64,000 bases of DNA from positions 15,726 to 79,725 of the forward strand of contig JBOHUD010000023.1 in NCBI GenBank assembly GCA_050734155.1. The letters are read 5' to 3'. The position numbers and the translations under genes were made by a program. Of the stretch, positions 8,961 through 54,040 are shown piece by piece. The notes below the pieces were generated by a model, which saw nothing but the letters and a program-made list of their open reading frames with translations, did not search any database and was not told the origin of the DNA. Within the stretch, counting starts at the first letter, position 1. Each line of letters begins with the position of its first letter. Origin of the DNA: Candidatus Dormibacteria bacterium. Lineage in GTDB: Bacteria; Chloroflexota; Dormibacteria; Aeolococcales; Aeolococcaceae.

Positions 8961-9853
8961 CGGCGGCCCGCGAACGCGGCTGCGGCTCCGGCGAGCAACG
9001 TCAGCCCGGCCAGCGCGGCCGTGCGCCACATCTCCGGGAGGTCCCTGGTGGTCACCACGGGGTCAGGGGGCAGGCCGTACACCTCGGGCTCGTCGAGAAG
9101 AAGGAAGAAGGCGCCGGCCCCGCCGATGCCGTCGTCATCCCCGTCCAGGTAGAGCCGGGCGTCGGCGACGCCGTGCTCGTGCAGCGTCTCGACGCGCTCG
9201 CGAGCGCGGACGCGCAACTCGTCGAGGTCGCCGAACTGGATCGATTCGGTGGGGCACGCCTGGGCGCAAGCCGGCACCATGCCCGCTCCCAGCCGGTCGT
9301 TGCAGAGAGTGCATTTCTGCGCCACCCCCGCGTTGTGCACGGTCCCGTCGCCCTCGCGGCGCTCGATGACGCCGAACGGGCAGGCCGGCACGCAGTATCC
9401 GCAGCCGTTGCAGATGTCCGCCTGGACGACGACGGTGCCGAACTCGGTGCGCATCAGGGCGCCGGTCGGGCAGACGTCGAGGCACGCCGCCTGCGTGCAG
9501 TGCTTGCACACGTCTGACGACATCAGCCAGCGGAAGTCCTGCGGCCCGTCGGGGATCGTCGCCGCCCCCACAGCCCCGCCATCACGCACGGGGAGCATGC
9601 GTATCGGCTTGCGCTGCTCGATGAAGGCGACATGCCTCCAGGTGCTGGCTCCAAGGCCGCCGGTGTTGTCGTACGAGGAGGCGAGCATGGTCAGCCCGTC
9701 CTCGGGAACGTGGTTCCATTCCTTGCACGCCACCTCACACGCCTTGCAGCCGATGCACAGCGAGGTGTCGGTGAAGAATCCCTTGCGCGGCGGAGGATCC
9801 TGCCAGCCGGCGCCGCGAGCCGCATCGAGCGGGCCGACGAAGGTGGTGCTCAC
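8957..9853 (-). CDS. fdnH: Formate dehydrogenase beta subunit (4Fe-4S ferredoxin, FdnH/HybA-like) with C-terminal TM anchor
   Basis: Four CxxCxxCxxxCP clusters (CIGCKACEVAC, CKHCTQAACLDVCP, CNGCGYCVPACP, CTLCNDR...CAQACP). C-terminal hydrophobic helix. GTG start at 9853 overlaps the alpha-subunit stop as GTGA. Confidence 0.8.
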   Translation of the reverse strand: MSTTFVGPLDAARGAGWQDPPPRKGFFTDTSLCIGCKACEVACKEWNHVPEDGLTMLASSYDNTGGLGASTWRHVAFIEQRKPIRMLPVRDGGAVGAATIPDGPQDFRWLMSSDVCKHCTQAACLDVCPTGALMRTEFGTVVVQADICNGCGYCVPACPFGVIERREGDGTVHNAGVAQKCTLCNDRLGAGMVPACAQACPTESIQFGDLDELRVRARERVETLHEHGVADARLYLDGDDDGIGGAGAFFLLLDEPEVYGLPPDPVVTTRDLPEMWRTAALAGLTLLAGAAAAFAGRR

Positions 9854-13953: not shown

Positions 13954-14799
13954 TCACCCCGCGGCCGCCTCCTCCACGCCCGCTCCGACCGCGACGACTC
14001 GCTGCTGGGCCGTGTAGACGTTCATCTGCTCGCCGCGCAGGAAGCCCACCAGCGTCATCCCGCTCTCCTCGGCGAGCTGCACGGCGAGGCTTGACGGCGC
14101 CGACACAGCGGCCAGCAGCGGGATGCCGGCCATCAGAGCCTTCTGGGTCAGCTCGAAGCTGGCTCGCCCCGACGCCAGGATGATGTGGGAGCGCAGCGGC
14201 AGCCGGCGCTGGGTCGCGGCCCAGCCGATCACCTTGTCGAACGCGTTGTGACGGCCGACATCCTCGCGCACGCAGACCAGCGTCCCACCTCCATCGAACA
14301 GTGCCGCGGCGTGCAGTCCGCCGGTGCGGGCGAACATCTTCTGAGCGCCCCGCAGCGTGCCCGGCAGCGCGGCGAGCAATGCTGGAGAGACGACCAGCGG
14401 ATCGCCCGAGACGTCGTGGCGCGAGCGCGTCCGCACCGCGTCGATGCTCGCCTTTCCGCAGACACCGCAGGACGAGGTCATGAAGAAGTTGCGCTGCCCC
14501 ACCGCCGCTGATCCCGCCGCCACCAGACGGACCTCGACGACGTTGAAGCCGCCCCCCGCATCGGCCTGGTGGGGGCACATCCGCATCGAGGCGATGTCGC
14601 CGGCGCCCTCGATGATGCCCTCGGTGACGAGGAAGCCGGCGGCGAGGTCGAAATCGGCGCCGGGGGTGCGCATGGTCACGGTGAGCGGCACACCGTCGAG
14701 CCGTATCTCCAGTGGCTCCTCGGCGCTGAGCTCGTCGGTGATCCAGCGCGCGTCGCCGGCCACGCCCACCTGTCGCACTCGCCGGCGCAGCCCCGTCAT
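13954..14799 (-). CDS. fdhD: Formate dehydrogenase accessory sulfurtransferase FdhD
   Basis: 281 aa with FdhD family motifs (SSCGVCGK catalytic Cys loop, GRHNAFDK). Lies upstream of the FDH structural genes. Confidence 0.8.
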   Translation of the reverse strand: MTGLRRRVRQVGVAGDARWITDELSAEEPLEIRLDGVPLTVTMRTPGADFDLAAGFLVTEGIIEGAGDIASMRMCPHQADAGGGFNVVEVRLVAAGSAAVGQRNFFMTSSCGVCGKASIDAVRTRSRHDVSGDPLVVSPALLAALPGTLRGAQKMFARTGGLHAAALFDGGGTLVCVREDVGRHNAFDKVIGWAATQRRLPLRSHIILASGRASFELTQKALMAGIPLLAAVSAPSSLAVQLAEESGMTLVGFLRGEQMNVYTAQQRVVAVGAGVEEAAAG

Positions 14800-14841: not shown

Positions 14842-15828
14842 TCAGCGGACCTCGATCGAGTGCTCGCGGCGGGGCACCAGCTCGCCGATGACCTGCGCTC
14901 TGTCGAGCTGTCCCGCGATGAGCAGGCCGCCACTGGTCTGCGCATCGGCGAGCAGCAGCCGTTCCGACTCGGCGGTGGCGGCACGCCCGCGCCACTCCAC
15001 GTGGGCGTCGACCCAGGCCAGGTTGCGACGGGTGCCGCCGCTGACGAAGCCGTCGGCAAGCGCCTCGCGGGCGCCCTCGAGGTAGGGCACCGAGTCGGCA
15101 TCGATGATCGCGGTGACGTTGCTGGCGCGGGCCAGCTTGAAGAGGTGCCCGAGCAGCCCGAACCCGGTGACGTCGGTCGCGCAGCGCACGCCCGCCGCCA
15201 CCGCCGCCTCCGACGCGTCCCGGTTGAGCCGGGTCATGGTTGCCACCGCCTCGGGAAAGACCTCGCCCGTCTGCTTGTGACGGCTGTTGAGCACCCCGAT
15301 GCCGAGCGGCTTGGTGAGCGAGAGCGGCGTACCGGCCATGCCCAGGTCGATGCGCAGGAGGCGGTCGGCGGGGGCGACGCCGCTCACCGCCATGCCGTAC
15401 TTCGGTTCAGGGTCGTCGACGCTGTGACCGCCGGCGACCGGGCAGTCGGCGGCCGTGGCCACCTCGAGACCACCGCGCAGGACCTCGGCGGCGAGCTCGA
15501 GCGGCAGCACCTCGCGCGGCCAGCAGAGCAGGTTGACGGCCAGCACCGGACGCCCGCCCATGGCGTAGATGTCGGACAGGGCGTTGGCGGCGGCGATGCG
15601 CCCCCAGTCGTACGCGTCGTCGACGACCGGGGTGAAGAAGTCGACCGTGCTCAGCAGTGCGGTGCCGCCGTCGCCGAGGCGGACCGCGGCCGCGTCGTCG
15701 CCGCCGTCCAGCCCCACCAGCAGCGAGCCATGCGGTGTCCCGACCAGCCCGGCCACGATCTGCTCCAGCTCACCGGGCGGGATCTTGCAGGCGCAACCGC
15801 CGCCGTGCGCGTAACCCGTGAGACGCAT
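14842..15828 (-). CDS. selD: Selenide, water dikinase (selenophosphate synthetase) SelD, Cys-type
   Basis: MRLTGYAHGGGCACKIPPGEL matches E. coli SelD [23 protein letters not shown]. PurM-like fold. Start at ATG 15828, checked in the sequence. Confidence 0.8.
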   Translation of the reverse strand: MRLTGYAHGGGCACKIPPGELEQIVAGLVGTPHGSLLVGLDGGDDAAAVRLGDGGTALLSTVDFFTPVVDDAYDWGRIAAANALSDIYAMGGRPVLAVNLLCWPREVLPLELAAEVLRGGLEVATAADCPVAGGHSVDDPEPKYGMAVSGVAPADRLLRIDLGMAGTPLSLTKPLGIGVLNSRHKQTGEVFPEAVATMTRLNRDASEAAVAAGVRCATDVTGFGLLGHLFKLARASNVTAIIDADSVPYLEGAREALADGFVSGGTRRNLAWVDAHVEWRGRAATAESERLLLADAQTSGGLLIAGQLDRAQVIGELVPRREHSIEVR

Positions 15829-15900
15829 CGCAGCGAGTGTTGCACAGGCGCGCGACCAGCCATCGCCGCGGCCTCCGGCCGCGCCGGTACCCTGTGCGGC

Positions 15901-15995
15901 GGAGGTGTGTGGGCGCCTGGTGGCCCTCCTGATCTTCAAAATCAGTGTGGCCGGGCATCTCGGCCAGGCGGGTTCGATTCCCGTCCGCCTCCGCC
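15901..15995 (+). tRNA. selC: tRNA-Sec (selC), anticodon TCA
   Basis: Acceptor stem ggaggtg pairs with cgcctcc, discriminator G. Anticodon arm ctgat-cTTCAaaa-atcag carries TCA. Long variable arm tggccg-ggcatct-cggcca. T arm gcggg-TTCGATT-cccgt. Length about 93 nt. Located between selD and selA (selA starts at 16014). Confidence 0.75.
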
Positions 15996-16013
15996 CGGCG
16001 AGGTGCCAGCATC

Positions 16014-17297
16014 ATGTCCGTGGACCCCCGTCGCGCCGTGCCCCCCACCGACGCCGTGCTCGCCGACCCGCGGCTGCGCGAGGTGCAGCACCGCCTCGGC
16101 CGGACGCTGGTGCTGGCCACCGTGCGCGAGGCCCAGCAGCGCGTCCGCGGCGGCGCGCTCGAGCCGGCGGCCATCATCGACGACGTGCTCCAGCACGTCC
16201 CCCCGCGAGCGGCGACCATGCGCCCGGTGCTGAACGCCACCGGGGTGGTGCTGCACACCAACCTCGGTCGGGCCGCCCTCTCCGCGGCCGCGCGCGAGGC
16301 GGTGGTCGCCGCCACCGGCTACGTCGACGTCGAGTACGACCTCCGCACCGGGGCGCGAGCGCCGCGCGGCCGCGGCGCGGTGGCGGCGCTCAGGGCTGCG
16401 CTGCCCGACGCCGGCGATGTCCACGTCGTCAACAACGGGGCCGCAGCCCTCCTGCTGGCCGTCACCGCGCTGGCGCAGGGACGCGAGGTGGTGTGGAGCC
16501 GGGGTGAGATGGTCGAGATCGGCGACGGCTTCCGCCTCCCCGAGCTGGTGGCGTCCGCCGGCGCCAGGGTGTGTGAGGTGGGCACCACCAACCGCACCGT
16601 GCGGGCCGACTACACGGCGGCGATCGGCGAGCGCGCCGGCTGCGTGCTCAGGGTGCACCCCTCCAACTTCCGCGTGACCGGCTTCACCGCGTCGGTCGGC
16701 GTGTCCGAGCTGGTCGACCTGGGCGTGCCTGTGGTGGTCGATGTGGGCTCCGGCCTGCTCACCGCCAACCCGCTGCTGCCCGACGAGCCCGACATCAGCA
16801 CCGCGCTGCGCGCCGGCGCGCACCTGGTGACCGCCAGCGGCGACAAGCTGCTCGGGGGCCCGCAGGCCGGCATCATCGCCGGTGACGCCGAGATCGTGGA
16901 CCGGCTGCGCCGCCACCCCATGGCACGGGCGCTGCGCGTGGACAAGCTCACCCTCGCTGCCCTCGAGGCGACGCTGGCAGGACCGGCGACGCCCACCGCG
17001 GCCGCGCTGCGCATCGGCACCGACGGGCTGCGGGCGCGAGCCCTGGCCATCGCCTCGCGGCTGGGCGGCGACGCCGCGGCGGTGCCCAGCGACGGAGCTG
17101 TCGGCGGCGGAAGCGCGCCCGGCGTCACCCTTTCCGGCTGGGCCGTGAGCCTGCCGGAGCGGCTGGTCGCCCCACTGCGCAGCGGCGACCCGGCAGTGGT
17201 TGGCCGCGTCGAGCGTGGCCGCTGCCTGCTCGATCTTCGCTGCATCCCTGAAGCGGACGACGCTGCGCTTGTCGGGGCGGTGCTGGCGTGCATGTGA
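16014..17297 (+). CDS. selA: L-seryl-tRNA(Sec) selenium transferase SelA
   Basis: PLP-dependent SelA family, with the GDKLLGGPQAGII Lys-containing motif. ATG 16014 chosen as start. Confidence 0.8.
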   Translation: MSVDPRRAVPPTDAVLADPRLREVQHRLGRTLVLATVREAQQRVRGGALEPAAIIDDVLQHVPPRAATMRPVLNATGVVLHTNLGRAALSAAAREAVVAATGYVDVEYDLRTGARAPRGRGAVAALRAALPDAGDVHVVNNGAAALLLAVTALAQGREVVWSRGEMVEIGDGFRLPELVASAGARVCEVGTTNRTVRADYTAAIGERAGCVLRVHPSNFRVTGFTASVGVSELVDLGVPVVVDVGSGLLTANPLLPDEPDISTALRAGAHLVTASGDKLLGGPQAGIIAGDAEIVDRLRRHPMARALRVDKLTLAALEATLAGPATPTAAALRIGTDGLRARALAIASRLGGDAAAVPSDGAVGGGSAPGVTLSGWAVSLPERLVAPLRSGDPAVVGRVERGRCLLDLRCIPEADDAALVGAVLACM

Positions 17298-19084
17298 TCG
17301 CCACCGCCGGGCATGTCGATCACGGCAAGTCCACTCTGGTGCGGGCGCTGACCGGCATGGAGCCCGACCGCTGGGCGGAGGAACGCCGCCGGGGCATGAC
17401 GATCGACCTTGGCTACGCCTGGACGCGGCTCCCCTCGGGCGCGGAGGTGGCCTTCGTCGACGTGCCCGGCCATGAACGCTTTGCCACCAACATGCTGGCC
17501 GGCGTCGGCCCGGTGCCGGCGGTGCTCCTGGTGATCGCCGCCGACCAGGGCTGGGCCGCCCAGACCGAGGACCACGTTGGCGCGCTCCACGCCCTCGGCG
17601 TCCGCCACGGCCTGGTCGCAGTCTCGCGCAGCGATCTCGCCGATCCCGCGGGCGCGATGGAACAGGCCCGGGTGCGCCTGCGCGGCACCAGCCTCGCGGG
17701 CATCCCCGCCATCGCTGTCTCCGGCGCCACCGGCGCGGGGCTCGATGAGCTGCGCGTCGCTCTCGACGAGCTTGCCGGACGATTGCCCCACCCCGATCCC
17801 GGCGCCCGGGTGAGGCTCTGGCTCGATCGCTGCTTCACCATCCGCGGCGCCGGCACCGTGGTGACGGGCACCCTGCCGGCGGGAACCATCCGGCGCGGCG
17901 ACACCCTCGAGCTGGCCGGCCGCCCGGTGACGGTGCGCGGCCTGCAGTGCCTCGGCACCGCCGTCGACGAGGTGACCGGGACAGCCCGCGTCGCCCTCAA
18001 CCTCCGCGCCGTGGGCCATGACGAGGTGCGCCGCGGGGACGCGCTGCTCACCCCGCGAGCCTGGCGGCGCAGCAACGTCGTCGACGTGCGCGCCGACACC
18101 GGCGCCGTGCCGTCTCGGCTGGTGGTCCACCTCGGCTCGGCGGCCACCCCAGCCGTCGCCCGTCCGCTGCTCGACGGTCCGCCGCTCGCTCACGCGATCG
18201 TGCGGCTGCGGCTCCGGGTGCCGCTGGCGCTGCAGGTGGGCGACCGCATCCTGCTCCGCGATCCCGGCCGCCGCCTCGTGGTGGCCGGCGCGACCGTGCT
18301 CGACCCGGCGCCTCCGCCGCTGCGCCGGCGCGGCGCCGCCCGCGCCCGCGCTGCCGCGCTCCGCGACGACCGAGGCACACCCAGCCTCGAGCGCGAGCTG
18401 TCGCGGCGCGGCGCGGCGCCCGCTGCCCTGCTCCAGGAGCTGGGCGTGCCCGTTGCCGAACCCCTGCCTGGAGTCGCCGTCGGGGTCGCCGGCTGGATCG
18501 TCGACCGCGTGCTGTGGGAGAGGTGGGGGCGGCAGCTGGCAGCGGCGGTCGAAACGCGGCCGTCAGCGGGCCCGCTCGATGCCGGGGTCAGCCGCGCGGA
18601 GCTGGTCGCGGCCCTGGCCCTGCCGGACGAGCGTCTCCTGCCCGAGCTCCTGGCGACGCAGCCCGGCGTCGAGGAGGATCGCGGCCGGGTCAGGCTCCGC
18701 GGCACCGCCGCCGCCCTGCGTCCCGACGTGGCCGCCGCCGTCGCTCGCCTCGTGGCTTGCCTGCGCGAGCAGCCGTTCAGTGCCCCGGAACAGACCGGGC
18801 TCGCTGCGCTGGGGCTCAGCCGCCGCGAGCTGGGCGCCGCGGCGTCCGCCGGCGCGATCCTGCGGCTGCCGGGCGACATCGTCCTCCTGCCCGACGCACC
18901 TCGCGAGGCCGCGCTGCGCCTGCGCGGCCTCCCCCAGCCGTTCACGCTGTCGGCCGCGCGCCAGGCACTGGGCACCACCCGGCGCGTCGCCGTGCCCCTG
19001 CTCGAGCATCTCGACTCCCTGCGCGTCACCGAGCGCATCGACGAGGGCCGGCGCCGGCTGCGCACCCCGGTGCCGCCGCCATGA
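17288..19084 (+). CDS. selB: Selenocysteine-specific elongation factor SelB
   Basis: N-terminal GTPase AGHVDHGKSTL followed by SelB winged-helix C-terminal domains. GTG start overlaps the selA 3' end. Confidence 0.85.
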   Translation: MHVIATAGHVDHGKSTLVRALTGMEPDRWAEERRRGMTIDLGYAWTRLPSGAEVAFVDVPGHERFATNMLAGVGPVPAVLLVIAADQGWAAQTEDHVGALHALGVRHGLVAVSRSDLADPAGAMEQARVRLRGTSLAGIPAIAVSGATGAGLDELRVALDELAGRLPHPDPGARVRLWLDRCFTIRGAGTVVTGTLPAGTIRRGDTLELAGRPVTVRGLQCLGTAVDEVTGTARVALNLRAVGHDEVRRGDALLTPRAWRRSNVVDVRADTGAVPSRLVVHLGSAATPAVARPLLDGPPLAHAIVRLRLRVPLALQVGDRILLRDPGRRLVVAGATVLDPAPPPLRRRGAARARAAALRDDRGTPSLERELSRRGAAPAALLQELGVPVAEPLPGVAVGVAGWIVDRVLWERWGRQLAAAVETRPSAGPLDAGVSRAELVAALALPDERLLPELLATQPGVEEDRGRVRLRGTAAALRPDVAAAVARLVACLREQPFSAPEQTGLAALGLSRRELGAAASAGAILRLPGDIVLLPDAPREAALRLRGLPQPFTLSAARQALGTTRRVAVPLLEHLDSLRVTERIDEGRRRLRTPVPPP

Positions 19085-42434: not shown

Positions 42435-43175
42435 ATGCTCGGGTTGCCGGACGGGGTGCGCGCCTGCCTGTTCGACCTCGACGGCGTCCTCACCCAGACA
42501 GCCAAGCTCCATGCCGCCGCGTGGAAGGAGATGTTCGATCAGTTCCTGCGCGAGCGGGCTGAACGGGAGGGCGATCGGTTCCGGCCCTTCGATGCGGTCG
42601 CCGACTATGACGAGTACGTCGACGGCAAGCCACGCGCCGACGGCGTGCGCTCGTTCCTCGCTTCCCGGGGAATCGGTCTCGACGATGGCCACCCGGGCGA
42701 CCCGGCGACGGCCGCCACCGTGGCGGGGCTCGGCAATCGCAAGAACGCGCTGGTTCTCCGCCTGATCCACGACCGGGGTGTGGAGCCATATGACGGCTCC
42801 GTGCGGTACGTTCGTGCGGCTCGCGACGCGGGCCTGCGCCGCGCCGTCGTCTCGTCGAGCAGCAACTGTCGCCAGGTGCTCGCCGCCGCGGACATTGCGG
42901 ACCTGTTCGAGAAGCGCATCGACGGGATCGTCGCGGAGCGAGAGCACCTGAAGGGAAAACCCGCTCCCGATGCCTTCCTGGCGGGGGCGCGTGCCCTGCG
43001 CGTCGCCCCCAAGGAGGCGGCGGTTTTCGAGGACGCGCTGGCGGGCGTGGCCGCGGGGCGAGCCGGCGAGTTCGGGTGGGTGGTGGGAGTCGACCGCGTT
43101 GGCCAGGCCGGCGAATTGCGCAAGCATGGGGCTGACATCGTCGTCTCCGACCTGGCTGAGCTGCTGGCCCGATGA
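42435..43175 (+). CDS. pgmB: Beta-phosphoglucomutase (HAD superfamily, subfamily IA)
   Basis: [24 protein letters not shown], the HAD motif I with DxD, and a KGKPAPD motif III. Confidence 0.8.
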
Positions 43176-45529
43176 TCAAGCATCCCGCCTTCGCCGTCGA
43201 GCCGTGGGCGCTGCGCGAGACGGAGTTGAGCCTGGACGTTCTCGCCCAGTCGGAATCCGTGTTCGCGCTGGCCAACGGACACATCGGTCTGCGCGCCAAC
43301 CTGGACGAGGGCGAGCCCAACGGTCTTCCGGGCACCTATCTCAACGGCTTCTACGAAGGTCGTCCGCTGCCCTATGCCGAGGCCGGCTACGGCTATCCCG
43401 AGGCGGGTCAGACGGTGGTCAATGTCACCAACGGCAAGATCGTCCGTCTGCTCGTCGACGACGAGCCCTTCGATGTCCGTTTCGGGGAGCTGCGCGCCCA
43501 CGAGCGACGGCTCGACTTCAGGGCCGGGGTTCTCCGACGCCAGGCGGAGTGGGTGTCCCCCGCGGGTCGTGGGGTGCGGGTGTGCTCGGTGCGCCTCGTC
43601 TCCCTCGTGCAGCGGGCGGTCGCGGCCGTCCTCTACGAGGTGGAACCGCTGGGCGCCGCCGCCCGCCTGGTGGTGCAGTCGGAGCTGGTGGCCAACGAGC
43701 CCATGCCGACCCTGTCCGGCGATCCCCGCACCGGCGCGATCATGAGGGCTCCACTGCGCTCCCTGCAGGTCGCCGGGAGGGGCAGCCGGGTGGTGCTGGT
43801 GCACACCACCAAGACCAGCGGGCTGCGCATGGCCGCCGCCATGGACCACATCGTCGAGGGGCCCACCGGCACTGACACCGGCCCCGAGGAGAGCGGCGAG
43901 GATCTGGGGCGGGTCACCGTCACCGCCGACGTGAAAGCGGGTCAGAAGCTGCGCATCGTCAAGTTCCTGGCCTACGGCTGGTCGAGCCAGCGCTCGACCG
44001 CCGCGCTGCGCGATCAGGTCGCGGCGGCGCTCGCCGAGGCCAGGCACACCGGGTGGGACGGGCTGCTCGCCGCGCAGCGCGAGTACCTGGATGAGTTCTG
44101 GGAGCGCGCCGACGTCGAGGTGGAGGGCGACGCCGAGCTGCAGCAGGCGGTCCGCTTCGGGCTGTTTCACATACTGCAGGCCGGCGCCAGGGCGGAGCGC
44201 CGTGCCATCGCCGCCAAGGGACTCACCGGCCCGGGCTACAACGGGCACACGTTCTGGGACAGCGAGAGCTTCGTGCTCCCGGTGCTCACCTACACCGTGC
44301 CCCACGCCGCCCGTGACGCTCTGCGGTGGCGGCATGCCACCCTGGACCTGGCCCGGGAGCGTGCTGCCGTGCTCGGGCTGGCCGGGGCGGCATTCCCCTG
44401 GCGCACCATCGCCGGCCAGGAATGCTCCAGCTACTGGCCGGCGGGGACAGCCGCATTCCACGTCGGAGCCGACATCGCCGACGCCGTCGGTCGCTACCAG
44501 GCGGCCACCCAGGACGAGGCGTTCGAGCGGGACATCGGGCTGGAGCTGCTCGTCGAGACGGCGCGACTGTGGTATTCGCTGGGCCAGCTCGACACCGAGG
44601 GCCGGTTTCGCATCGACGGCGTCACCGGTCCCGACGAGTACAGCGCCGTCGCCGACAACAACGTCTACACCAACCTGATGGCGCAGCACAATCTGCGAGC
44701 CGCCGCCGATGTCGTCGAACGCCACCCCGATCGCGCCGCTGACCTCGGCGTCGCCGGGCACGAGGCCGCCACCTGGCGCGAGGCCGCCAACGCCACCCTC
44801 ATCCCCTATGACCGCCGGCTGGGCGTTCATCCCCAGGCCGAGGGTTTCACCGACCACCGGATCTGGGACTTCGCCAGCACCGCCGCCGAGCAGTACCCGC
44901 TGCTCATGCACTTTGCCTACTTCGACCTGTACCGCAAGCAGGTCGTCAAGCAGGCGGACCTGGTGCTGGCACTGCACCTTCGGGGCCATGCTTTCAGCGC
45001 GGAGGAGAAGGCCCGCGACTTCGACTACTACGAGCGTCTCACCGTTCGCGATTCATCGCTCTCGGCGTGCACCCAGGCGGTGATCGCAGCCGAGGTCGGG
45101 CACCTCGAGCTGGCCTACGACTACTTCGGCGAGGCCGCCCTCATCGATCTCGACGACCTGGAGCACAACACGCGTGACGGCCTGCACATCGCGTCGCTCG
45201 CGGGCGCTTGGATCGTTGCGGTGGCCGGTTTCGGCGGGCTGCGCGACCACGACGGCTCGCTGAGCTTCTCTCCCCGCCTCCCGGAGAGCCTGCGGCGCCT
45301 GGCCTTCGGGCTCCTCTACGCGGGGCGGCGCCTCAGGGTCGAGGTCGAGCCGCGACTGGCTCGCTACACGCTCCTCGAGGGCGCGCCTCTCCAGATCAGG
45401 CACCACGGGGATCCACTCATGGTCACGGCCGAGAACCCGGTGACGCGTGGGATCCCAGCTCCACCGCGGCGCGACGCGCCCACCCAACCGCCGGGGCGGG
45501 CGCCGCAGCGGCGCCGACCCGCGGGCTGA
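43172..45529 (+). CDS. Glycoside hydrolase family 65 disaccharide phosphorylase (maltose/trehalose/kojibiose phosphorylase-like)
   Basis: 785 aa with GH65 N-terminal, central (alpha/alpha)6 catalytic and C-terminal domains. ATGA overlap with pgmB; co-occurrence with beta-PGM is the canonical pairing. Confidence 0.85.
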
Positions 45530-45542
45530 ACCGAGCCCGGCG

Positions 45543-46055
45543 CTACGAGGTGTGCCCAGGCCCCCTGAGCTCGTCCGCGTAGCGAGACACGGACCGGTTG
45601 TAGCGGGGCAGGTACTTCGACAGGGCGGTCAGGGCCACAGCCACCGCCTCTCGCTCGCGGCCCACATCGACCAGCGCCAGCGCGAGGAAGGTCGCCACCG
45701 CCCCGTCCAGCTCGTCCGAGGCGGCGTCCGTCTCCTCGGTCAGGAGGGCGAGTGCCTCCTCTGGCTTGCCGAGGTTGCGCAGCGAGCTGGCCATCTGGAT
45801 GGCCGCGCGCCGTCGCCGCTCGCCGGCCAGGCCCGCGGCGATCCCCGCGGCGTACAGGGGAACCGCTCGGTCGGGGTGGCCGGTGGAGTCGAGCGCCGCG
45901 GCACGCTCGAACATGCCGATGGGGTCGCCGGACGGCAGCTCGCCGGCCAGGGCGTCGACGCGATCGACGAACTCGTCCTCCTCGCAGCCCTCCATGCCCG
46001 CCCAGAGGTCCGCCATGCGCCTCTCCCAGTCGGCGTCAGCTTCACCCACGCGCAA
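45543..46055 (-). CDS. Hypothetical TPR-like helical protein
   Basis: 170 aa, Ala/Leu-rich helical repeats. No catalytic motif. Convergent with the GH65 gene, divergent from pspA. Confidence 0.45.
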   Translation of the reverse strand: MRVGEADADWERRMADLWAGMEGCEEDEFVDRVDALAGELPSGDPIGMFERAAALDSTGHPDRAVPLYAAGIAAGLAGERRRRAAIQMASSLRNLGKPEEALALLTEETDAASDELDGAVATFLALALVDVGREREAVAVALTALSKYLPRYNRSVSRYADELRGPGHTS

Positions 46056-46256
46056 AGAGTAGGGGCGACGGCAGCGAGTTGTACTTGTCGACCCACCGGT
46101 CGTGGATCAGCCTGATCGTCACCGGATTGAGAAAGCGCTGGCGTGGTAGCCTCCGTCGCGGCGGCCGGCCCCAGGAGCACGGTGCGATCCACGCCAGGCT
46201 GGCTCAATCCGCGCTCCTCCACCACTGGCCCGGAACCTGACGGCAAGGAGGAACTC

Positions 46257-47288
46257 GTGAGCGTATTTCGGCGCTTCAGCAACATCTTCCAGGAGAAGAG
46301 CAACGCCGCCCTGGATCGGATGGAGGATCCGTCGCAGGCGATCGACCTGTCGTATCAGCAGCTCCTCGAGCAGCAGCAGAAGCTGCGCACCGCGCTGGTC
46401 GGGGCCACCACCGGGCAGAAGCGCCTCGAGAACCAGGCGGCAGAGATGGACAAGCGCATCGCCCAGCTCAACACCGCAGCGCAGCAGGCGATGCAATCGG
46501 GCAAGGAGGAGCTGGCCACCCAGGCGCTCACCCAGGCCGAGGTCCTCGGCCAGCAGCGCCAGGCGCTGGACCCGCAGATCCAGTCGATCCGCGCCCAGGT
46601 CGCCAAGCTGCAGCAGGGCATCCAGAGATACCAGGCCAAGGTGCAGGCGTTCGCCAACCAGCGTGAGTCGCTGAAGGCATCCTACGAGGCCTCCAAGGCG
46701 ACGAGCGCCGCCGGTGACACGCTGGCCGGCATCGGCGAGCACACCTCGGATGCCGCGATGATGATGCAGCGCGCCCAGGACAAGATCGCCCGCACCCAGG
46801 CCCACGCCGATGCCGTCGACTCCCTGCTCGACAGCGGCGTGCTCGACGCACCCCTGCTGAGCGGCGGGGCGACGTCGCTGGACGATCAGATCACTGCCAC
46901 GGTGGTCGACACCAACGTGCAGGCAAAGCTGGCGGCGATGAAGTCACAGCTCGGCCTCGCCGGTCCCGCCGCGGCCCCGCAGCTCGACACCGCCGGCATC
47001 GTGGTGCGCGTCCACGGCGAGGATCAGTACCGTCTCGATGCCTCCGCTCGCCCTGAGCTCGACGCCTTCGACCACCGGCTGATCGCGGCGGTGCGCGCCG
47101 ACGATGACGCCGCCTACCACGCCGCCCTCGGCGAGGTGACAGCCTTCGTCAAGGAGAAGGGCATGGCCCTGCCGCACGGCGACCTCTCCGCCAGCACCAT
47201 CATCCTGCCCAGCGACGACATGTCCCTGGACGAGGTGACCTCCATGCTGCAGCAGGAGAACTGGATGGGCGAGCCGGCGGCGAGGTAG
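46257..47288 (+). CDS. pspA: PspA/IM30 (phage-shock protein A / Vipp1) family protein with extended C-terminal region
   Basis: AAGGAGG Shine-Dalgarno followed by a GTG start. VSVFRRFSNIFQEKSNAALDRMEDPSQAIDLSYQQLLEQ matches the PspA N-terminus, then a long coiled coil. About 100 extra C-terminal residues. Confidence 0.8.
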   Translation: MSVFRRFSNIFQEKSNAALDRMEDPSQAIDLSYQQLLEQQQKLRTALVGATTGQKRLENQAAEMDKRIAQLNTAAQQAMQSGKEELATQALTQAEVLGQQRQALDPQIQSIRAQVAKLQQGIQRYQAKVQAFANQRESLKASYEASKATSAAGDTLAGIGEHTSDAAMMMQRAQDKIARTQAHADAVDSLLDSGVLDAPLLSGGATSLDDQITATVVDTNVQAKLAAMKSQLGLAGPAAAPQLDTAGIVVRVHGEDQYRLDASARPELDAFDHRLIAAVRADDDAAYHAALGEVTAFVKEKGMALPHGDLSASTIILPSDDMSLDEVTSMLQQENWMGEPAAR

Positions 47289-47295
47289 GCGGGCC

Positions 47296-48153
47296 CTAGG
47301 CCTCGCCAGCGACCCCGGCGGAGGCGCCGGAGGTCTCGCCGGCGCCGGGATCGAGCCGGTCGTTGAGCGGCAGCACCATCGCCGGAGCGATCAGCTGATG
47401 GGTGGCGCCGGCGAGGCGGACCGCCGTTCCGACGGCGAGAAACTCGATGACGTGGGTGCCCCATAGGTGGGACTGCTGCTCGATGCGCATGGCCACTATC
47501 CCCTGCGCTCCCGTGCCGCGCGCCTCATCCTGCATGCGCGTCATGGCCAGCTCGCGTGCCTCGTAGAGAGCGGCCGTGTAGTTGCTGAGCTCGACATTCT
47601 GACGAGCCTGGCCGACCCAGGTGGACAGCCCCTGGTGCGCGATGTGGTAGACGCAGGCACCAAACGCCAGTCCCACCGGCGTGTAGCCGGCGCGGATCAG
47701 CAGGTACAGATCCTGACCGGACAGGTCGCTGATCCACAGGTGGGGCGCGGACTGCGACGTGCTCGCCACGGCCGTGCCCAGCGCGACGAACTCGGCGAGG
47801 TGCTCGGTCCCGCGATGGATCCGCACCTCGAGCTTCAGGCCGATGACGCCCTGGCCACCGACCTGCTGCGCGTGCCGCTGCATCCGGCGGACGGCGTCGG
47901 TGCGCGCCGCGTACATGACCTCGGTGAGGCCGGTCATCTCCTGATTGCTGTTCCAGTTCTGATACTGGATGCCGATGTGGTAGACACCGCAGCCCACCAC
48001 GACCCCGCGCGGCTCGTAGCCCACCTCCTTGAGCAGCACCGCCTCGTCGACCGAGAGATCGCTGCTGAAGCGCCGTCCCCGGTGGCGCTCGCCTGCGCCG
48101 GTGGCGAGGCACTGCAGCGCCGCATCGGCACGCGGATGCGCGACGGCGGCCAT
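47296..48153 (-). CDS. Tandem-duplicated YbjQ/UPF0145 (DUF74, putative heavy-metal-binding) domain protein, paralog C
   Basis: Two YbjQ-like units (SSDLSVDEAVLLKEVGYEPRGVVVG...GVIGLKLEV...GTAV, and a second). ATG overlaps the upstream paralog's TGA (TGATG). Confidence 0.65.
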   Translation of the reverse strand: MAAVAHPRADAALQCLATGAGERHRGRRFSSDLSVDEAVLLKEVGYEPRGVVVGCGVYHIGIQYQNWNSNQEMTGLTEVMYAARTDAVRRMQRHAQQVGGQGVIGLKLEVRIHRGTEHLAEFVALGTAVASTSQSAPHLWISDLSGQDLYLLIRAGYTPVGLAFGACVYHIAHQGLSTWVGQARQNVELSNYTAALYEARELAMTRMQDEARGTGAQGIVAMRIEQQSHLWGTHVIEFLAVGTAVRLAGATHQLIAPAMVLPLNDRLDPGAGETSGASAGVAGEA

Positions 48154-49088
48154 CAGCGCAACCTCATGATCGGCATCGGCTCCTCGTCCATGGGGTCCTT
48201 CGCGTACCTGCGGACCGCGGTTCCGACACAGACCAGCTCGATGAGCAGTGATCCGTGGGCGAGGTCGTGGGCGCCGAAGTCGATGTCGACACCGACCGCG
48301 CCGTCGGCGTCCACCTGGGCGACCTCGGCCTCGATGCGGCTGATCCCCAGGAGCCTGGCCTGCTCGATGCCGTCGCTGATCTGGTCGATGCGGACGTTGT
48401 TCCACGAGCTGAGCAGGAACTCCGTCCCGCATCCCGGATCGATCTCCACAGCGCCGATGCCGATGACCAGGGCAACCGGGACGTAGCCGCCGTGCAGCAG
48501 CTTGCTGAAGGACACGCCGTCGAGGTGTGACATGAACGGCGCCGCCAGCTCAGGGCCACCCGACCGGCGAATCGCGGTCCCGATGACGGTGAACTCCATG
48601 GTGTTGCCGACCCCCTCCAGGTGTCGCCGGATCAGCCGCACCCCGACCACCCCGTGGGCGTTGAGGTCGCGTGCCTCTTCGGTCATCCTGGCCAGGGCCG
48701 CGTCGCGCGCGCCCACCACGCCGGCCTCGTACGCGGTGTGCTCCCAGTTGTAGCCGTAGCGGTGCTCCCCTCCCCTCGCGTAGTACATGCCATAGCTGTG
48801 AGGGCAGGGGTAGCTCTGTCCCGGACCAGCCCCGGACCCCCCGAAGATGGTGCTGTAGCCCCATTGGGCGGCGATGCGCACCACGCTCGACCCCATCACC
48901 ATCCCCACCGGTTCGAAGCCGGCGTGCCCGATGGCGGAGAGCTCACCCACGGAGAGGTCGCTGGTCCACGCCGCCCCGGTCTGACGCAGCTCGTCGATCC
49001 GCTCGCGAGCCGCGAGCGGCAGCTCACCCCTCTCCAGGGCGGCGATGCTCTGCTGCTGCCGTTGCGCCGCCGCGGCCTCGTCCGGCAT
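48153..49088 (-). CDS. Tandem-duplicated YbjQ/UPF0145 domain protein, paralog B
   Basis: WTSDLSVGELSAIGHAGFEPVGMVMG ... HGVVGVRLIRRH...GTAI, and a second unit. TGATG coupling on both ends. Confidence 0.65.
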   Translation of the reverse strand: MPDEAAAAQRQQQSIAALERGELPLAARERIDELRQTGAAWTSDLSVGELSAIGHAGFEPVGMVMGSSVVRIAAQWGYSTIFGGSGAGPGQSYPCPHSYGMYYARGGEHRYGYNWEHTAYEAGVVGARDAALARMTEEARDLNAHGVVGVRLIRRHLEGVGNTMEFTVIGTAIRRSGGPELAAPFMSHLDGVSFSKLLHGGYVPVALVIGIGAVEIDPGCGTEFLLSSWNNVRIDQISDGIEQARLLGISRIEAEVAQVDADGAVGVDIDFGAHDLAHGSLLIELVCVGTAVRRYAKDPMDEEPMPIMRLR

Positions 49089-49939
49089 CAGCGATCCAGA
49101 GAGAGCACCATCCGCGGCTTCTCGATCTCGCGGTCGGGAAGCTTGCGCACGGCGGTGCCCATGGCAAAGAACTCGATCGTGTGGCTGCCCCACACGTGCG
49201 ACTTCTCCTGGATCTGCACCCCGACGATCCCCTCCGCCTGCAACTTGCGAGCCTCGTCCTGCATGCGCTCCATGGCCAGCTCACGAGCCTCGTAGAGGGC
49301 CTGGGTGAAGTTGGCCATCTCCTTGTTCTGGCCGATGTTCCCAAGGGCCTGGAACATCCTCTGATGAGCCACGTGGTAGACGCAGGTCCCCATCACCAGG
49401 CCGAGGGGGGCGTGGCCCGACTGCAGCAGGGTCCAGAAGTCCTGACCGCTGAGGTCAGAACTGAAGGGCTTTCCCTCGCCGGTCTTCCAGTTGCCGCCAT
49501 CCTCGGCGGAAACAGCGGTGCCCAGGGCGAGGAACTCGGCGGTGCCGCGCCCCCATTCGTAGAAGCCGACATCGAGGCGCACGCCGACGACGCCGTCGGC
49601 GCCGAGGACCGCCGCCTCCTCCTCCATGCGGGCCATGGCCAGCTCCCGGGCCGCGTACATCGCCTGGGTGAGGGTGGCCACCTCCTGGCTGGAGCTCCAG
49701 CTCTTGGTGGTGAGGCCGATGTGGTAGATGCTGCTGCCCACCACCAGGCCGCGGGGATGGAAGCCCGCCTCCTTGACGAGCAGGAATTCGTTGACGGAGA
49801 GGTCCGACGTGAACAGGCCATCCTTGCCCTGGAGCTCGCTGAGACGGCGCAGCGCGTCCTTGGGCAGGCCCTCGAGCTGCGGCTGGGTGGGGGCGGTCGG
49901 CTCAGCCGGTGGCGGCGGTGGTGGCGCCTGCTGGGTCAT
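49088..49939 (-). CDS. Tandem-duplicated YbjQ/UPF0145 domain protein, paralog A (Pro-rich N-terminus)
   Basis: FTSDLSVNEFLLVKEAGFHPRGLVVGSSIYHIG ... GVVGVRLDVGFYEWGRGTAEFLALGTAV aligns with E. coli YbjQ ...ADAVVGIDIDYE...GTAV. Start at ATG 49939, checked in the sequence. Confidence 0.65.
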   Translation of the reverse strand: MTQQAPPPPPPAEPTAPTQPQLEGLPKDALRRLSELQGKDGLFTSDLSVNEFLLVKEAGFHPRGLVVGSSIYHIGLTTKSWSSSQEVATLTQAMYAARELAMARMEEEAAVLGADGVVGVRLDVGFYEWGRGTAEFLALGTAVSAEDGGNWKTGEGKPFSSDLSGQDFWTLLQSGHAPLGLVMGTCVYHVAHQRMFQALGNIGQNKEMANFTQALYEARELAMERMQDEARKLQAEGIVGVQIQEKSHVWGSHTIEFFAMGTAVRKLPDREIEKPRMVLSLDR

Positions 49940-49979
49940 GGCTGCGCTGCCTCCGAGGATGCCCTGGCGACCGTGCCGA

Positions 49980-50372
49980 TCATGTGACCAGCGACCGCAG
50001 CGCGGCGCTCGCCTGGGCGCTGTTCTGAGCCTGGCCGGCGAGGACGCCGAGCAGCGCGCGCAGCCAGGAATCCAGTCCCGTCTCCTCGGAGCGCAGGGTG
50101 ATTCCGCGCACCGCGTGGGCGTGCCGGCAGCTGATCGCACCGTCGCGCAACTGCGCCTCGAAGACGTCGTCACCGGCGCGCACCACGATCTTCCTGATGG
50201 GATGATCCTTCTTGAAGAGGCCACCCTCGCGGTCCAACTCAACGGCCCCTGGCATCGAATCCGCGAGCTTGCCGCCGAGCACCTGGAAGAAGACGCCGAT
50301 GTCGCTGGCGTCCGCGCGCAGCGACGCGGCGAGTGAGTCGAGATCCGGGTCCGACGATGGCACCTCACTCAT
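49980..50372 (-). CDS. Small hypothetical protein (130 aa), paralog of 50414-50815
   Basis: Shares a GVFFQVL...KL core and an identical C-terminal AALRSLVT with the upstream paralog. No known domain recognised. Confidence 0.5.
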   Translation of the reverse strand: MSEVPSSDPDLDSLAASLRADASDIGVFFQVLGGKLADSMPGAVELDREGGLFKKDHPIRKIVVRAGDDVFEAQLRDGAISCRHAHAVRGITLRSEETGLDSWLRALLGVLAGQAQNSAQASAALRSLVT

Positions 50373-50413
50373 CAGCACCGCGAGTATAGGAAGTTGCCCG
50401 CCGGCGACGAGGC

Positions 50414-50815
50414 CTACGTGACCAGTGAGCGCAGCGCGGCGGCGGCGGATCCCTCGGTCCGCGCCTCCCGGGAGACCATCTCGACCAGGGCGCGCACCCA
50501 TTCGTCGACGGACGCCGGCTTCGACCAGGGAAGTCCACCGCCGACCCCGTGGACCGAGTGGATGTGGCGGCAGGTCACCTTGCCGCGCTCCAGCTCGGCC
50601 TCGAACGTCTCGTCCCCCAGGCGCACATTGATCCGTCGCGCCCGGCGCCGCTTCTTGAACACGCTGCGATCGCGTTCGACCTCGGTGTTCTCGGGGAGCG
50701 CGCTGAGCAGCTTCTCGCACAGCACCTGGAAGAAGACACCCGCATCGCGCGCGTCAGCCTGCAGGGAGGCGGCGACGGCATCGAGATCCTCGCGGGGCGG
50801 GAGCGAGTCGCTCAT
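50414..50815 (-). CDS. Small hypothetical protein (133 aa), paralog of 49980-50372
   Basis: MSDSLPPREDLDAVAASLQADARDAGVFFQVLCEKL...TCRHIHSVHG...AALRSLVT. About 45% identity to its neighbour. Confidence 0.5.
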   Translation of the reverse strand: MSDSLPPREDLDAVAASLQADARDAGVFFQVLCEKLLSALPENTEVERDRSVFKKRRRARRINVRLGDETFEAELERGKVTCRHIHSVHGVGGGLPWSKPASVDEWVRALVEMVSREARTEGSAAAALRSLVT

Positions 50816-50834
50816 GTCGCAGATCCGCGGCCGC

Positions 50835-51233
50835 CTAGAGGCGGTACAACCGCTGCCCGCGCCGCGTCACCACCCGAGCCCCCAAGCGCTGAGCACGGCT
50901 GCCGATCGAGCGCCCGTCGACCACGCGGTGCCCCGCCGTCTGGTTGATGTGCGCGGCGATCTGCGCTGACGTGGCCGGCCCGAGCTCCAGCATCGCCGCC
51001 CGAACGGTGCGGTCGGTGACCGGCGCCGGTGCCGAGCCCTGGGTGGGAGGGCTCGCCGGGGGGCGCCGGGCCCTGCGGGAGGCGGCGCGCCGGCGTGGTC
51101 GGCTGGGCTCGGCCGCGGCCGGTTCGAGGGCCGAGGCAATGGAGTTGAGCACCCGGGCCAGATCGTGAGCGGCGCCGTTGAGGTTGTCGGCCACCGTGCG
51201 GAGCGCGGCGGCAAGCGGTCGGGATTGGTTCAC
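50835..51233 (-). CDS. Hypothetical small protein, possible winged-helix C-terminus
   Basis: 132 aa in the gap between the ABC permease gene and the small-paralog pair. Low-complexity Pro/Ala/Arg middle region. Low certainty. Confidence 0.3.
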   Translation of the reverse strand: MNQSRPLAAALRTVADNLNGAAHDLARVLNSIASALEPAAAEPSRPRRRAASRRARRPPASPPTQGSAPAPVTDRTVRAAMLELGPATSAQIAAHINQTAGHRVVDGRSIGSRAQRLGARVVTRRGQRLYRL

Positions 51234-51248
51234 ACCGCTCAGGGTAGC

Positions 51249-52151
51249 TCAGTCGCGGTGGCGGAACGAGCGCATGGCGACGCCCAGCAGCACCGCGCTG
51301 AAGGCCACCAGGACGGCTACATCGACGGCCACGGGCACCACGTAGGTGCCGATGGTGACCGACGCCAGGCGCTCGACCGCGGCCGCGGGCAGACCGCTGC
51401 CACCCAGGATCGCGGAGCGGATCGGGGCGATGCCGTAGGCCACGGGGTCGAAGCGGGTGAGCACCGTCATCCAGCCGGGCAGCCCGCTCAGCGGGAACAG
51501 GGCTCCGCTGAGAAAGAACATCGGCATCATCAGGAAGTTCATCACCACCTGGAAGCCCTGCATGGTCTTGAGACGCGCCGAGATGGCGACCCCGAAACAG
51601 GTCAGCGAGAAGGCCAGGAGGAAGAGCAGCGGGATGGCCTCGAGCACCGACACCACGGTGAGGTGCACCCCCACGAAGGGGGCGAACACCAGCATCACCA
51701 CCCCCTGGACCGCCGCCTGCGTGGCCCCCCCGAGGGCCTTGCCGATGGCCACCGCCGAGCGGCTGATGGGTGCGACCAGGATCTCGCGGAGGAAGCCGAA
51801 CTCACGATCCCACACCACCGACATGGCGCTGAAGATCGCCGTGAAGAGCACGGCCATGCCCAGCACACCCGGGTACATGAACTGGATGTAGCTGAACGAC
51901 GCCGGCAGCCCGCGCCCACCGATGGAGTTGCCCCGACCGAGCGCCGCGCTGAGACCGACGCCGAAGATGGCGAGGTAGAGGACCGGTTGGGCCAGCGACA
52001 TGATCAGCCGCACCCGATCACGCCAGAAGCGGATGACGTCGCGGTACCAGATGATGTACACCGCCTGCGCCAGGGGAACGGTGACCCGCCCCGGCGCGGG
52101 GGCGACAGCCAGCGGTGTCGGCGCGGTCTCCACCGCGGTCTCAGCCGTCAT
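51249..52151 (-). CDS. ABC-2 type transporter permease (DrrB-like)
   Basis: 300 aa with six TM helices and the ABC-2 family fold. ATGA-coupled to the upstream ATPase gene. Confidence 0.75.
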   Translation of the reverse strand: MTAETAVETAPTPLAVAPAPGRVTVPLAQAVYIIWYRDVIRFWRDRVRLIMSLAQPVLYLAIFGVGLSAALGRGNSIGGRGLPASFSYIQFMYPGVLGMAVLFTAIFSAMSVVWDREFGFLREILVAPISRSAVAIGKALGGATQAAVQGVVMLVFAPFVGVHLTVVSVLEAIPLLFLLAFSLTCFGVAISARLKTMQGFQVVMNFLMMPMFFLSGALFPLSGLPGWMTVLTRFDPVAYGIAPIRSAILGGSGLPAAAVERLASVTIGTYVVPVAVDVAVLVAFSAVLLGVAMRSFRHRD

Positions 52152-53173
52152 CGACGCCCCCGGGCGGCGAACGCCCGCATCATCGACATCCGGGAGTCGG
52201 CCTCGGCGTCGCGGATGGCGCGGCCGGTGAGCTTGAGGAAGACGTCGTCGAGGCTGGGGCGCCGCACCGTCACCGTGGTCACTGGAACGGAGAGCGCGGT
52301 GATCAGCTGGGGGACGAATTGCGCTCCGTCCTGCACCTCCACTCGGAGCGTGTCGCCGTCCGGCACCGGGTTGACGCCCAGCGTGGCCATGATCTCCCGC
52401 GCGGCGCGGGTGTTGTCGTCGGTGCTGACCACGACGATGTCGCCACCGACCTGTGCCTTGAGCTCGTCGGGTGTGCCCAGGGCCACGATGCTCCCGTGGT
52501 CGATGATGGCGATGCGATCGCAGAACTCCGCCTCCTCCATGTAGTGGGTGGTCATGAAGATGGTCAGGCCGGTGGTGGCACGGATCCTGCCGAGGTGATC
52601 CCAGACGTTGGCCCGGGTCTGCGGGTCCAGCCCCTGGGTGGGCTCGTCGAGGAAGAGCACCTCGGGGGCGTGGAGGATGCCGCGGGCGATCTCCAGACGC
52701 CTCTTCATCCCCCCGGAGAAGGTGCTGACCAGCGCGTCCGCCCGGTCGAGGAGGTCGACGGTGGCCAGGGCTGCGCCGATGCGCTCCCTGCGCTGGTGGC
52801 GCGCCACCCCGTACACCATGGCGTGGAAGAGGAGGTTCTCGCGGGCGGTCAGCTGGACGTCCAGCGAGGGGTCCTGGAACACCAGGCCGATCCGCGCGCG
52901 CACCCCGTCGGGATCACCGGCCACGTCGATGCCCGCCACCGAGGCGCTGCCCGAGGTGGGCTTGAGGAGCGTGCAGAGAACCGAGATGGTCGTGGACTTG
53001 CCGGCGCCGTTGGGCCCGAGGAATCCGAAGATCTCACCGCGCCGCACCGCGAGGTCGATGCCCCGGACGGCCTCGACGGTGCCGTACCTCTTGACCAGAC
53101 CCGTCACGGCGATGACCACGCCGGCCCGGCCGGTGGGGATCCCGGGGCGCAGGCTGACTGCGGTGGCGACCAT
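52148..53173 (-). CDS. ABC transporter ATP-binding protein (DrrA-like exporter ATPase)
   Basis: Walker A GPNGAGKSTT, signature LSGGMKRRLEIA, Walker B LLFLDEPT. Start set at ATG 53173. Confidence 0.85.
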   Translation of the reverse strand: MVATAVSLRPGIPTGRAGVVIAVTGLVKRYGTVEAVRGIDLAVRRGEIFGFLGPNGAGKSTTISVLCTLLKPTSGSASVAGIDVAGDPDGVRARIGLVFQDPSLDVQLTARENLLFHAMVYGVARHQRRERIGAALATVDLLDRADALVSTFSGGMKRRLEIARGILHAPEVLFLDEPTQGLDPQTRANVWDHLGRIRATTGLTIFMTTHYMEEAEFCDRIAIIDHGSIVALGTPDELKAQVGGDIVVVSTDDNTRAAREIMATLGVNPVPDGDTLRVEVQDGAQFVPQLITALSVPVTTVTVRRPSLDDVFLKLTGRAIRDAEADSRMSMMRAFAARGRR

Positions 53174-53305
53174 GAGCGCTAGTGTGCCGATTCTCGGGCG
53201 AATCGGGTCGTTCCGCCGGCGGCGCCGGACCCGGGGTGCGGCAGGGTAAGGTGCGCCCCTGTGCAGCGCCACTGGTCATCCGCAGCCTGTGCCGGGGACT
53301 GAGCC

Positions 53306-54040
53306 GTGCTGACAGTCGACTTCGGCCGTCTCCACCTTCGGCGCGGCACCCGGGTGCTCGATGTCGGCTGTGGCAATGGGCGGCACGCGCTCGAGGCGCT
53401 TCGCCGCGGCGCGGAGGTGGTCGCCACCGACCTCGACGGCACCGCCCTCGGCAGCCTCGAGCGGGTGGCGGGGGCGATGGCCGCCGCCGGCGAGGTGGCC
53501 GGCGGGACGCTGCGGACGGTGCTTGCGGACGCGCGCAGCCTGCCCTTTGTTGATGGGGAGTTCGACGTGGTCATCGCCGCCGAGGTGCTCGAGCACATCC
53601 GCGAGGATGCGGCCGCGCTGGCAGAGCTGTGCCGGGTCCTGCGTCCCGGCGGCCTGCTGGCGGTCACGGTGCCGCGGTGGTGGCCCGAGAGGATCTGCTG
53701 GGCGCTCTCCAGCGAGTACCACGACATCCCGGGCGGCCACGTGCGCATCTACCGGCGCTCCCAGCTCATCGAGCGAATGCTCGGCTCGGGCCTGGTCATC
53801 GCCCCACCCCACCACCATGCGCACGCTCTCCATTCGCCGTACTGGTGGCTGCGCTGTCTGCTGGGAATGTCCCGCGAGCAGGCCCTGCCGGCGCGTCTGT
53901 ACCACCGCTTTCTGGTGTACGACCTGATGCGCCGTCCGCGCTGGACCCGCAGCCTGGAGCGGGCCCTCAACCCAGTCCTCGGCAAGAGCGTGGTGGTCTA
54001 TGCGCGGCGCCCGGCGCAGGCGCGCTCGGGCCGGTTGTAG
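53306..54040 (+). CDS. Class I SAM-dependent methyltransferase
   Basis: Motif I VLDVGCGNGRHA and motif II FDVVIAAEVLEHI. Confidence 0.75.
   Translation: MLTVDFGRLHLRRGTRVLDVGCGNGRHALEALRRGAEVVATDLDGTALGSLERVAGAMAAAGEVAGGTLRTVLADARSLPFVDGEFDVVIAAEVLEHIREDAAALAELCRVLRPGGLLAVTVPRWWPERICWALSSEYHDIPGGHVRIYRRSQLIERMLGSGLVIAPPHHHAHALHSPYWWLRCLLGMSREQALPARLYHRFLVYDLMRRPRWTRSLERALNPVLGKSVVVYARRPAQARSGRL

Follow-up and report, generated by a model that had tools for sequence, protein, structure and literature searches.

The stretch of DNA analysed here (the window) comprises 64,000 nucleotides from a Candidatus Dormibacteria soil bacterium (Dormibacterota, a phylum of which little is known; metagenome-assembled genome, GenBank assembly GCA_050734155.1, contig JBOHUD010000023.1, positions 15,726 to 79,725 of the forward strand), and our subject is a group of genes within it encoding three proteins with tandem YbjQ (UPF0145/DUF74) domains, here termed A, B and C, together with small proteins of an unannotated family. 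Eight minus-strand genes are packed between 53272 and 47296 with intergenic gaps of no more than 50 bp (Table 1): an ATP-binding cassette (ABC) ATPase and permease, a basic open reading frame (ORF) designated orfX, the two small paralogs small1 and small2, and genes A, B and C. A and B, and likewise B and C, share 1 nt in TGATG stop/start overlaps (49090-49086 and 48155-48151), and on the opposite strand a pspA gene converges on gene C, its end at 47288 leaving a 7-bp gap to the C stop at 47296. An earlier note on this DNA had reported these overlaps and this gap along with the gene coordinates, frames and sequence motifs, all of which proved correct on re-reading of the sequence. The note had also described the PspA protein as 'extended'; the assignment to PspA stands, with the nature of the extension now identified as a fusion of PspA_IM30 to PspAA, and with the probable start placed at the GTG at 46257, behind AAGGAGG, rather than at the longer-ORF start at 46143. 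The eight minus-strand genes have GC contents at third codon positions (GC3) of 0.87-0.92, typical of coding sequence; only orfX is odd, with a second-position value (GC2) of 0.64 beside its GC3 of 0.88. A promoter and terminator scan of 45400-53600 found no signals, and an Rfam scan of the window returned only a tRNA-Sec, away from the YbjQ genes.

Table 1. Genes of the YbjQ locus and its immediate surroundings in the window.
Feature	Coordinates	Strand	Family matches and remarks
YbjQ-A, tandem-YbjQ protein, 283 aa	49939-49088	-	PF01906, 88 bits, 2 stretches
YbjQ-B, divergent tandem-YbjQ paralog, 311 aa	49088-48153	-	PF01906, 53.1 bits, 2 stretches
YbjQ-C, tandem-YbjQ protein, 285 aa	48153-47296	-	PF01906, 77.3 bits, 2 stretches
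small2, small subunit, 127 aa, unannotated alpha/beta family	50363-49980	-	
small1, extra small-subunit paralog, 133 aa, with GVGGGLP insertion	50815-50414	-	
PspA/IM30 with C-terminal PspAA	46257-47288	+	PF04012, 94.7 bits; PF22743, 76.1 bits
orfX, basic Ala/Arg/Pro-rich ORF, 132 aa	51233-50835	-	family-less; between permease and small1
ABC-2 permease	52151-51249	-	PF01061 (ABC2_membrane)
DrrA-type ABC ATPase	53272-52148	-	PF00005, TIGR01188

The earlier assignment of two YbjQ domains to each of A, B and C was checked against PF01906 (YbjQ_1), which located two stretches in every protein, and all six domains match the family above its threshold (cut-off 23 bits). The proteins are also mutual paralogs, as had been proposed, with BLASTP identities of 49% for A and C (243 aa, E = 4e-82), 31.5% for A and B (292 aa, E = 9e-32) and 27% for B and C (E = 5e-22); in other genomes B, the most divergent of the three, frequently scores under the Pfam cut-offs. 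A profile of the A family finds the crystal structures 1y2i, 2gtc and 1vr4, all of them pentamers. Fold modelling, which among the three YbjQ proteins covered A, gave with AlphaFold2 (AF2) a structure of two alpha-beta-alpha-beta-beta units (predicted local distance difference test score, pLDDT, 91.5; predicted template modelling score, pTM, 0.86), for which the top Foldseek matches in the PDB were 1y2i, 1vr4 and 3qkb, with probability 1.0 and target-normalised TM-scores of 0.57-0.73; RcsF came next, after the YbjQ/DUF74 pentamers. In a large protein collection, where A has at least 8000 close relatives, its nearest homologs all belong to Dormibacterota, so that the actinobacterial source implied in the earlier note was not borne out; at E < 1e-30 the relatives of A form 374 representative clusters. 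A sequence scan of A, B, C, small1 and small2 found neither a hydrophobic segment of transmembrane strength nor a signal-like segment. Because they lack segments of transmembrane strength, the YbjQ and small proteins are predicted to be soluble and cytoplasmic, and the 'envelope-associated' character previously suggested for them finds no support in their sequences.

The distribution of these genes was examined by scanning species-representative genomes with a four-sequence alignment of A, which identified a relative in at least 570 species. The best 80 matches, being those closest to A, form a sample biased towards A-like loci, and come from Dormibacterota, many Acidimicrobiia, Streptomyces, Streptacidiphilus, Acidothermaceae, Micromonosporaceae and Pseudonocardiaceae. 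Counts of gene arrangements rest on tblastn searches with the window proteins (84 loci) and on the collection's own gene calls; seven further loci were reached independently via the small family, and overall counts use 91 loci. By tblastn, the small gene adjoins YbjQ genes in 78 of the 84 loci, and the importance that the earlier note had attached to the small paralogs is upheld to the extent that one member of their family is a near-universal fourth component. Dormibacterota and Acidimicrobiia loci have the order small-A-B-C on one strand, and other actinomycetes the orders small-B-A or B-A-small. YbjQ-C is found in most Dormibacterota and Acidimicrobiia loci and is missing from the two-gene versions of Streptomyces and relatives, two YbjQ genes with a small gene being the arrangement in Streptomyces, Streptacidiphilus, Acidothermaceae and Micromonosporaceae. 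On a Streptomyces linear plasmid, for example, RefSeq records two genes for a 'heavy metal-binding domain-containing protein' and an overlapping 'hypothetical protein'.

Stop/start overlaps of 1-4 nt recur in both phyla. In all seven loci found from the small family, the small gene is followed by YbjQ genes, i.e. the same cassette, with overlaps of 4 nt for small/A, 1 nt for A/B and 4 nt for B/C where the gene calls are intact. Since this small-first search recovers small followed by YbjQ genes, the small gene can itself be counted as a cassette component. The arrangement described for the window is thus conserved, the comparison covering 91 related loci of Dormibacterota and Actinomycetota, and, judged from gene order and sequence, the conserved unit is a four-gene, sometimes three-gene, cassette that is predicted to be translationally coupled and of which the small gene forms an integral part.

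Lineage-specific surroundings were also noted. In Acidimicrobiaceae, YbjQ-C is followed by a same-strand SnoaL_2 (NTF2-like) gene that overlaps the C stop (e.g. L087:10162-10572); this gene, cluster c11, lies about 2.4 kb downstream of A in 11 Acidimicrobiaceae loci besides L087. In the same family the small gene often has an F420/PNPOx-like gene ahead of it, and these two additions may represent a lineage-specific extension of the operon. The only match seen outside Dormibacterota and Actinomycetota (L093) is a tandem-YbjQ relative of 42% identity on a conjugative cyanobacterial plasmid (Aulosira laxa NIES-50 plasmid2, AP018309.1 34819-47526), which is apparently truncated or split in the annotation and has an antirestriction gene and XisI genes as neighbours.

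The small family itself comprises at least 1382 sequence clusters, every one of them labelled 'hypothetical'. Small2 and small1 are 47.6% identical (BLASTP, E = 3e-36), sharing the GVFFQVL core and AALRSLVT end, and one of the two is 100% identical to a protein from a Candidatus Dormibacteria metagenome-assembled genome. A second small copy occurs, among the fetched loci, only in L006 besides the window, indicating a duplication limited to some Dormibacteria. Scans of Pfam, NCBIfam, PADLOC and PHROGs yielded nothing for the small proteins; a set of 29 diverse family members gave no Pfam match at E <= 1, and small-family profiles searched against PDB sequences found nothing. An AF2 model of small1 (pLDDT 74) consists of two helices, a five-stranded sheet and two helices, with no Foldseek match in the PDB at E <= 0.001. 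A relationship to PspAA was considered and ruled out, hhalign against the PspAA alignment giving a probability of 0.2%.

The members of the cassette are under markedly unequal constraint. Across the 61 loci that have all four genes, and for pairs whose A proteins are less than 75% identical, median identity is 69% for A, 36% for B, 40% for C and 32% for the small protein, whilst positions conserved at 97% or more (62 loci, two phyla) number 115 of 283 in A, 13 in B and 27 in C. Residues invariant among orthologs of A include C186, H189, H192, H248, W250 and H253 of the C-terminal domain. In the topology of the AF2 model, C186, H189 and H192 stand where the first strand of this second domain ends, and H248, W250 and H253 in the hairpin that joins its final two strands; going by the strand order of the fold, both segments would be found at one tip of the domain. 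Among 38 diverse representatives C186 is retained in 31, H189 in 29 and W250 in 34, each of the six being the majority residue except H192 (13/38). B carries, in its N-terminal domain, a Gly/aromatic-rich insertion with an invariant C-P-H motif: C95 and C220 are present in 62/62 loci and H97 in 61/62, with C95, P96, H97, H145 and C220 all lying between 57 and 62 of 62. These unequal rates and motifs are consistent with a hetero-complex having one constrained core subunit, and also consistent with binding of a metal or cofactor. Heavy-metal binding by the YbjQ family is a database label for which the literature searches found no experimental basis; the metal-related role raised as a possibility in the earlier note gains some indirect support from the conserved Cys/His motifs of A and B.

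A link between the YbjQ genes and PspA had been suggested from their adjacency in the window, and this holds in part: PspA is encoded within 10 kb of the cassette in 12/91 loci, in three arrangements, but most loci are without it. The pspA gene is convergent and adjacent in the window, L006 and L008, or, where unrelated genes have been inserted, at a distance of 5-8 kb (L001, L005 and L007); it is divergent and adjacent, with the PspAA fusion, in L010 and L011; and it is co-directional and immediately upstream, without PspAA, in L040, L042, L044, L067 and L072. In L042 and L044 (some Acidimicrobiia) the pspA stop overlaps the small start by about 4 nt, and in L072 the two are separated by a 2-nt gap; with the two genes overlapping or abutting in this way, these three loci appear to possess a pspA-small-A-B-C operon. 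Genomes carry one to few pspA genes, from which proximity within 10 kb would be expected by chance at about 1%, a figure that is not corrected for shared ancestry. On the basis of these comparisons the association is a probable one, though facultative. The only paper found to name both YbjQ and PspA gives them separately, in proteomics tables.

Of the remaining genes nearby, orfX has no family match in family scans and no tblastn counterpart in any of the 84 related loci; it may encode a small DNA-binding protein peculiar to this lineage, or may not be a gene at all. Just upstream of pspA, and divergent from it, is the gene for a TPR_5 protein (170 aa, 159.7 bits, 45543-46055, minus strand). 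Further out, the plus-strand ORFs at 42435-43175 and 43172-45529 have translations that we take to be those of a beta-phosphoglucomutase-like HAD hydrolase and a GH65-type glycoside phosphorylase, respectively, and which would then presumably constitute a maltose/trehalose/kojibiose phosphorylase pair (42435-45529). The window also holds a complete selenocysteine cluster, consisting of FdhD (13954-14799, minus strand), a SelD-like AIRS protein (14842-15939, minus strand), tRNA-Sec (15901-15995, plus strand), SelA (15945-17297, plus strand) and SelB (17288-19084, plus strand); this adjoins an ORF for a formate-dehydrogenase-like molybdopterin oxidoreductase (9850-12480, minus strand), inside which there may be a UGA-Sec codon.

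The explanation that we prefer, and to which we give about an even chance of being right, is that the small protein, A, B and C form a soluble, cytoplasmic, hetero-oligomeric YbjQ complex that is facultatively tied to PspA/IM30. On this proposal small, A, B and, where present, C would be made in fixed proportions and would co-assemble in the cytoplasm on the ring-forming YbjQ fold. A would be the constrained core subunit, its conserved Cys/His/Trp cluster providing a candidate metal or cofactor site; B would add its own invariant Cys-Pro-His loop; and C and the small protein would be faster-evolving accessory subunits. Because pspA heads the operon in some lineages, the complex probably acts in, senses for, or is co-regulated with the PspA membrane-maintenance response. 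In a stronger form, which we consider unlikely, the assembly would be an ancient metalloprotein complex, common to Dormibacterota and Actinomycetota, that acts as a hitherto unrecognised PspA/IM30 partner, be it a sensor, a regulator or a co-effector in membrane repair. Several observations weigh against the preferred explanation. To our knowledge no YbjQ protein has an experimentally established function. Every solved YbjQ structure is a homopentamer, such that each paralog could self-assemble. Single-ORF fusions of the small domain with tandem-YbjQ domains do occur, in both orders (P0175, P0180 and P0319), but these are singletons, may be artefacts of assembly or frameshifting, and are weak evidence. 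The Cys/His positions of A are not universal in the wider family, and their clustering is read from strand topology only. About 87% of loci have no pspA gene within 10 kb, and the loci are phylogenetically clustered, leaving few independent PspA associations (about 3-6).

The homopentameric precedent leads directly to the possibility that no hetero-complex exists, with three paralogs that are each homo-oligomeric and that became clustered by tandem duplication, their divergence to 27-49% identity being compatible with this. Such an account would not readily explain why the A-B-C order, the overlaps and the small gene have been held across two phyla, nor the very unequal evolutionary rates, which we take to be typical of obligate heteromers, and we consider it fairly unlikely, if far from negligible. 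The invariant Cys/His motifs of A and B may instead belong to a cytoplasmic metal or metalloid module (for storage, as a chaperone or as a sensor) unrelated to PspA, whose proximity would be leftover synteny. The Pfam/NCBI label 'putative heavy-metal-binding' and the pentameric archaeal selenium-binding protein, which has the same fold, speak in its favour; the label, however, is a structural guess made without experiments, no metal transporter or regulator recurs beside the cassette, and the overlap of pspA with the small gene in several genomes is hard to square with leftover synteny, so that we regard a module of this kind as quite improbable.

In the earlier note the YbjQ trio, small proteins, DrrAB-like exporter and PspA had been joined into one envelope-associated stress or metal-export assembly, an idea that the compact layout in the window encourages, since all eight genes lie on one strand with such short gaps and pspA is 7 bp away. 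The exporter ATPase scores above the TIGR01188 cut-off (337.6 bits against 312). In the closest relatives (L001-L009), and in nearly all of the 91 loci, no DrrAB-like pair lies upstream of the YbjQ genes; the clusters of the pair, c41/c131, occupy that position only in the window and in L060, and in L060 the ABC pair is cut off from the cassette by a TetR gene and two genes on the opposite strand. ABC-2 pairs are in any case very common in these phyla. As the YbjQ and small proteins additionally lack transmembrane or signal-like segments, we judge the proposed assembly to be very unlikely; the exporter was rejected as a part of the cassette and, on this comparison of loci, is in this genome an incidental neighbour. 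An anti-phage defence system or mobile-element cargo is exceedingly improbable. Homologs are carried on linear plasmids of Streptomyces and on a single conjugative plasmid from a cyanobacterium, and one PHROG with no assigned function gives a weak match, but PADLOC has no match for A, B, C, small1, small2 or orfX, no relative was found in 2.9 million viral contigs, and the extreme conservation of A, with a cassette in at least 570 species, is housekeeping-like; a defence or phage origin was rejected on these grounds.

Among known systems, the likeness to YbjQ/UPF0145/DUF74 proteins (PF01906; 1y2i, 1vr4, 2gtc, 3qkb) lies in the domain sequence and the fold of A, but canonical YbjQ is a single domain of about 105 aa that forms a homopentamer, whereas the present proteins are three diverged paralogs with tandem domains (283-311 aa), co-translated with the small protein, which is unrelated to them. 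Nor do the canonical proteins have the Cys/His/Trp cluster seen in A or the C-P-H insertion seen in B. The archaeal selenium-binding protein (PF11524), DUF1471/YhcN and RcsF have a small alpha/beta fold in common with them and are in some cases pentameric, but bear no sequence relationship and are periplasmic, outer-membrane or archaeal single domains, in contrast to the predicted cytoplasmic tandem domains here. The upstream ATPase and permease do match the DrrAB-type ABC-2 exporter, which is not co-conserved with the cassette. Psp systems have been surveyed (PMC11237479) and include PspBC/F, LiaIH, ClgR-PspA-PspMN and PspA-PspAA/PspAB; as in these, PspA_IM30 (here as a PspAA fusion) recurrently stands beside lineage-specific accessory genes, but that survey names neither YbjQ nor the small family as a partner, and in most genomes the cassette lacks a nearby pspA.

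Searches of the literature on YbjQ, DUF74, UPF0145 or the 'heavy metal-binding domain-containing protein' label, and on YbjQ in connection with PspA, turned up no functional study, matches to 'DUF74' in a 2026 Actinomycetota transcriptomics preprint being in fact to DUF742. The domain family is a known one; these searches found no description of the tandem-domain cassette as a heteromeric unit, its obligatory unannotated partner, the Cys/His motifs of A and B or the pspA operon fusion.

YbjQ/UPF0145 proteins are widespread, and structures of them have been available for some twenty years with no function known. The cassette offers a handle on them, in that it combines a constrained core, putative ligand residues, an unannotated and obligate-looking partner and a link to PspA, and its presence in cultured Streptomyces and Streptacidiphilus strains makes genetics and biochemistry feasible. 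If the PspA link is true, the cassette would be a new accessory module of membrane maintenance by bacterial ESCRT-III in two phyla that dominate soils; and if the novel partnership is true, it would provide the first functional context for the YbjQ/UPF0145 fold.

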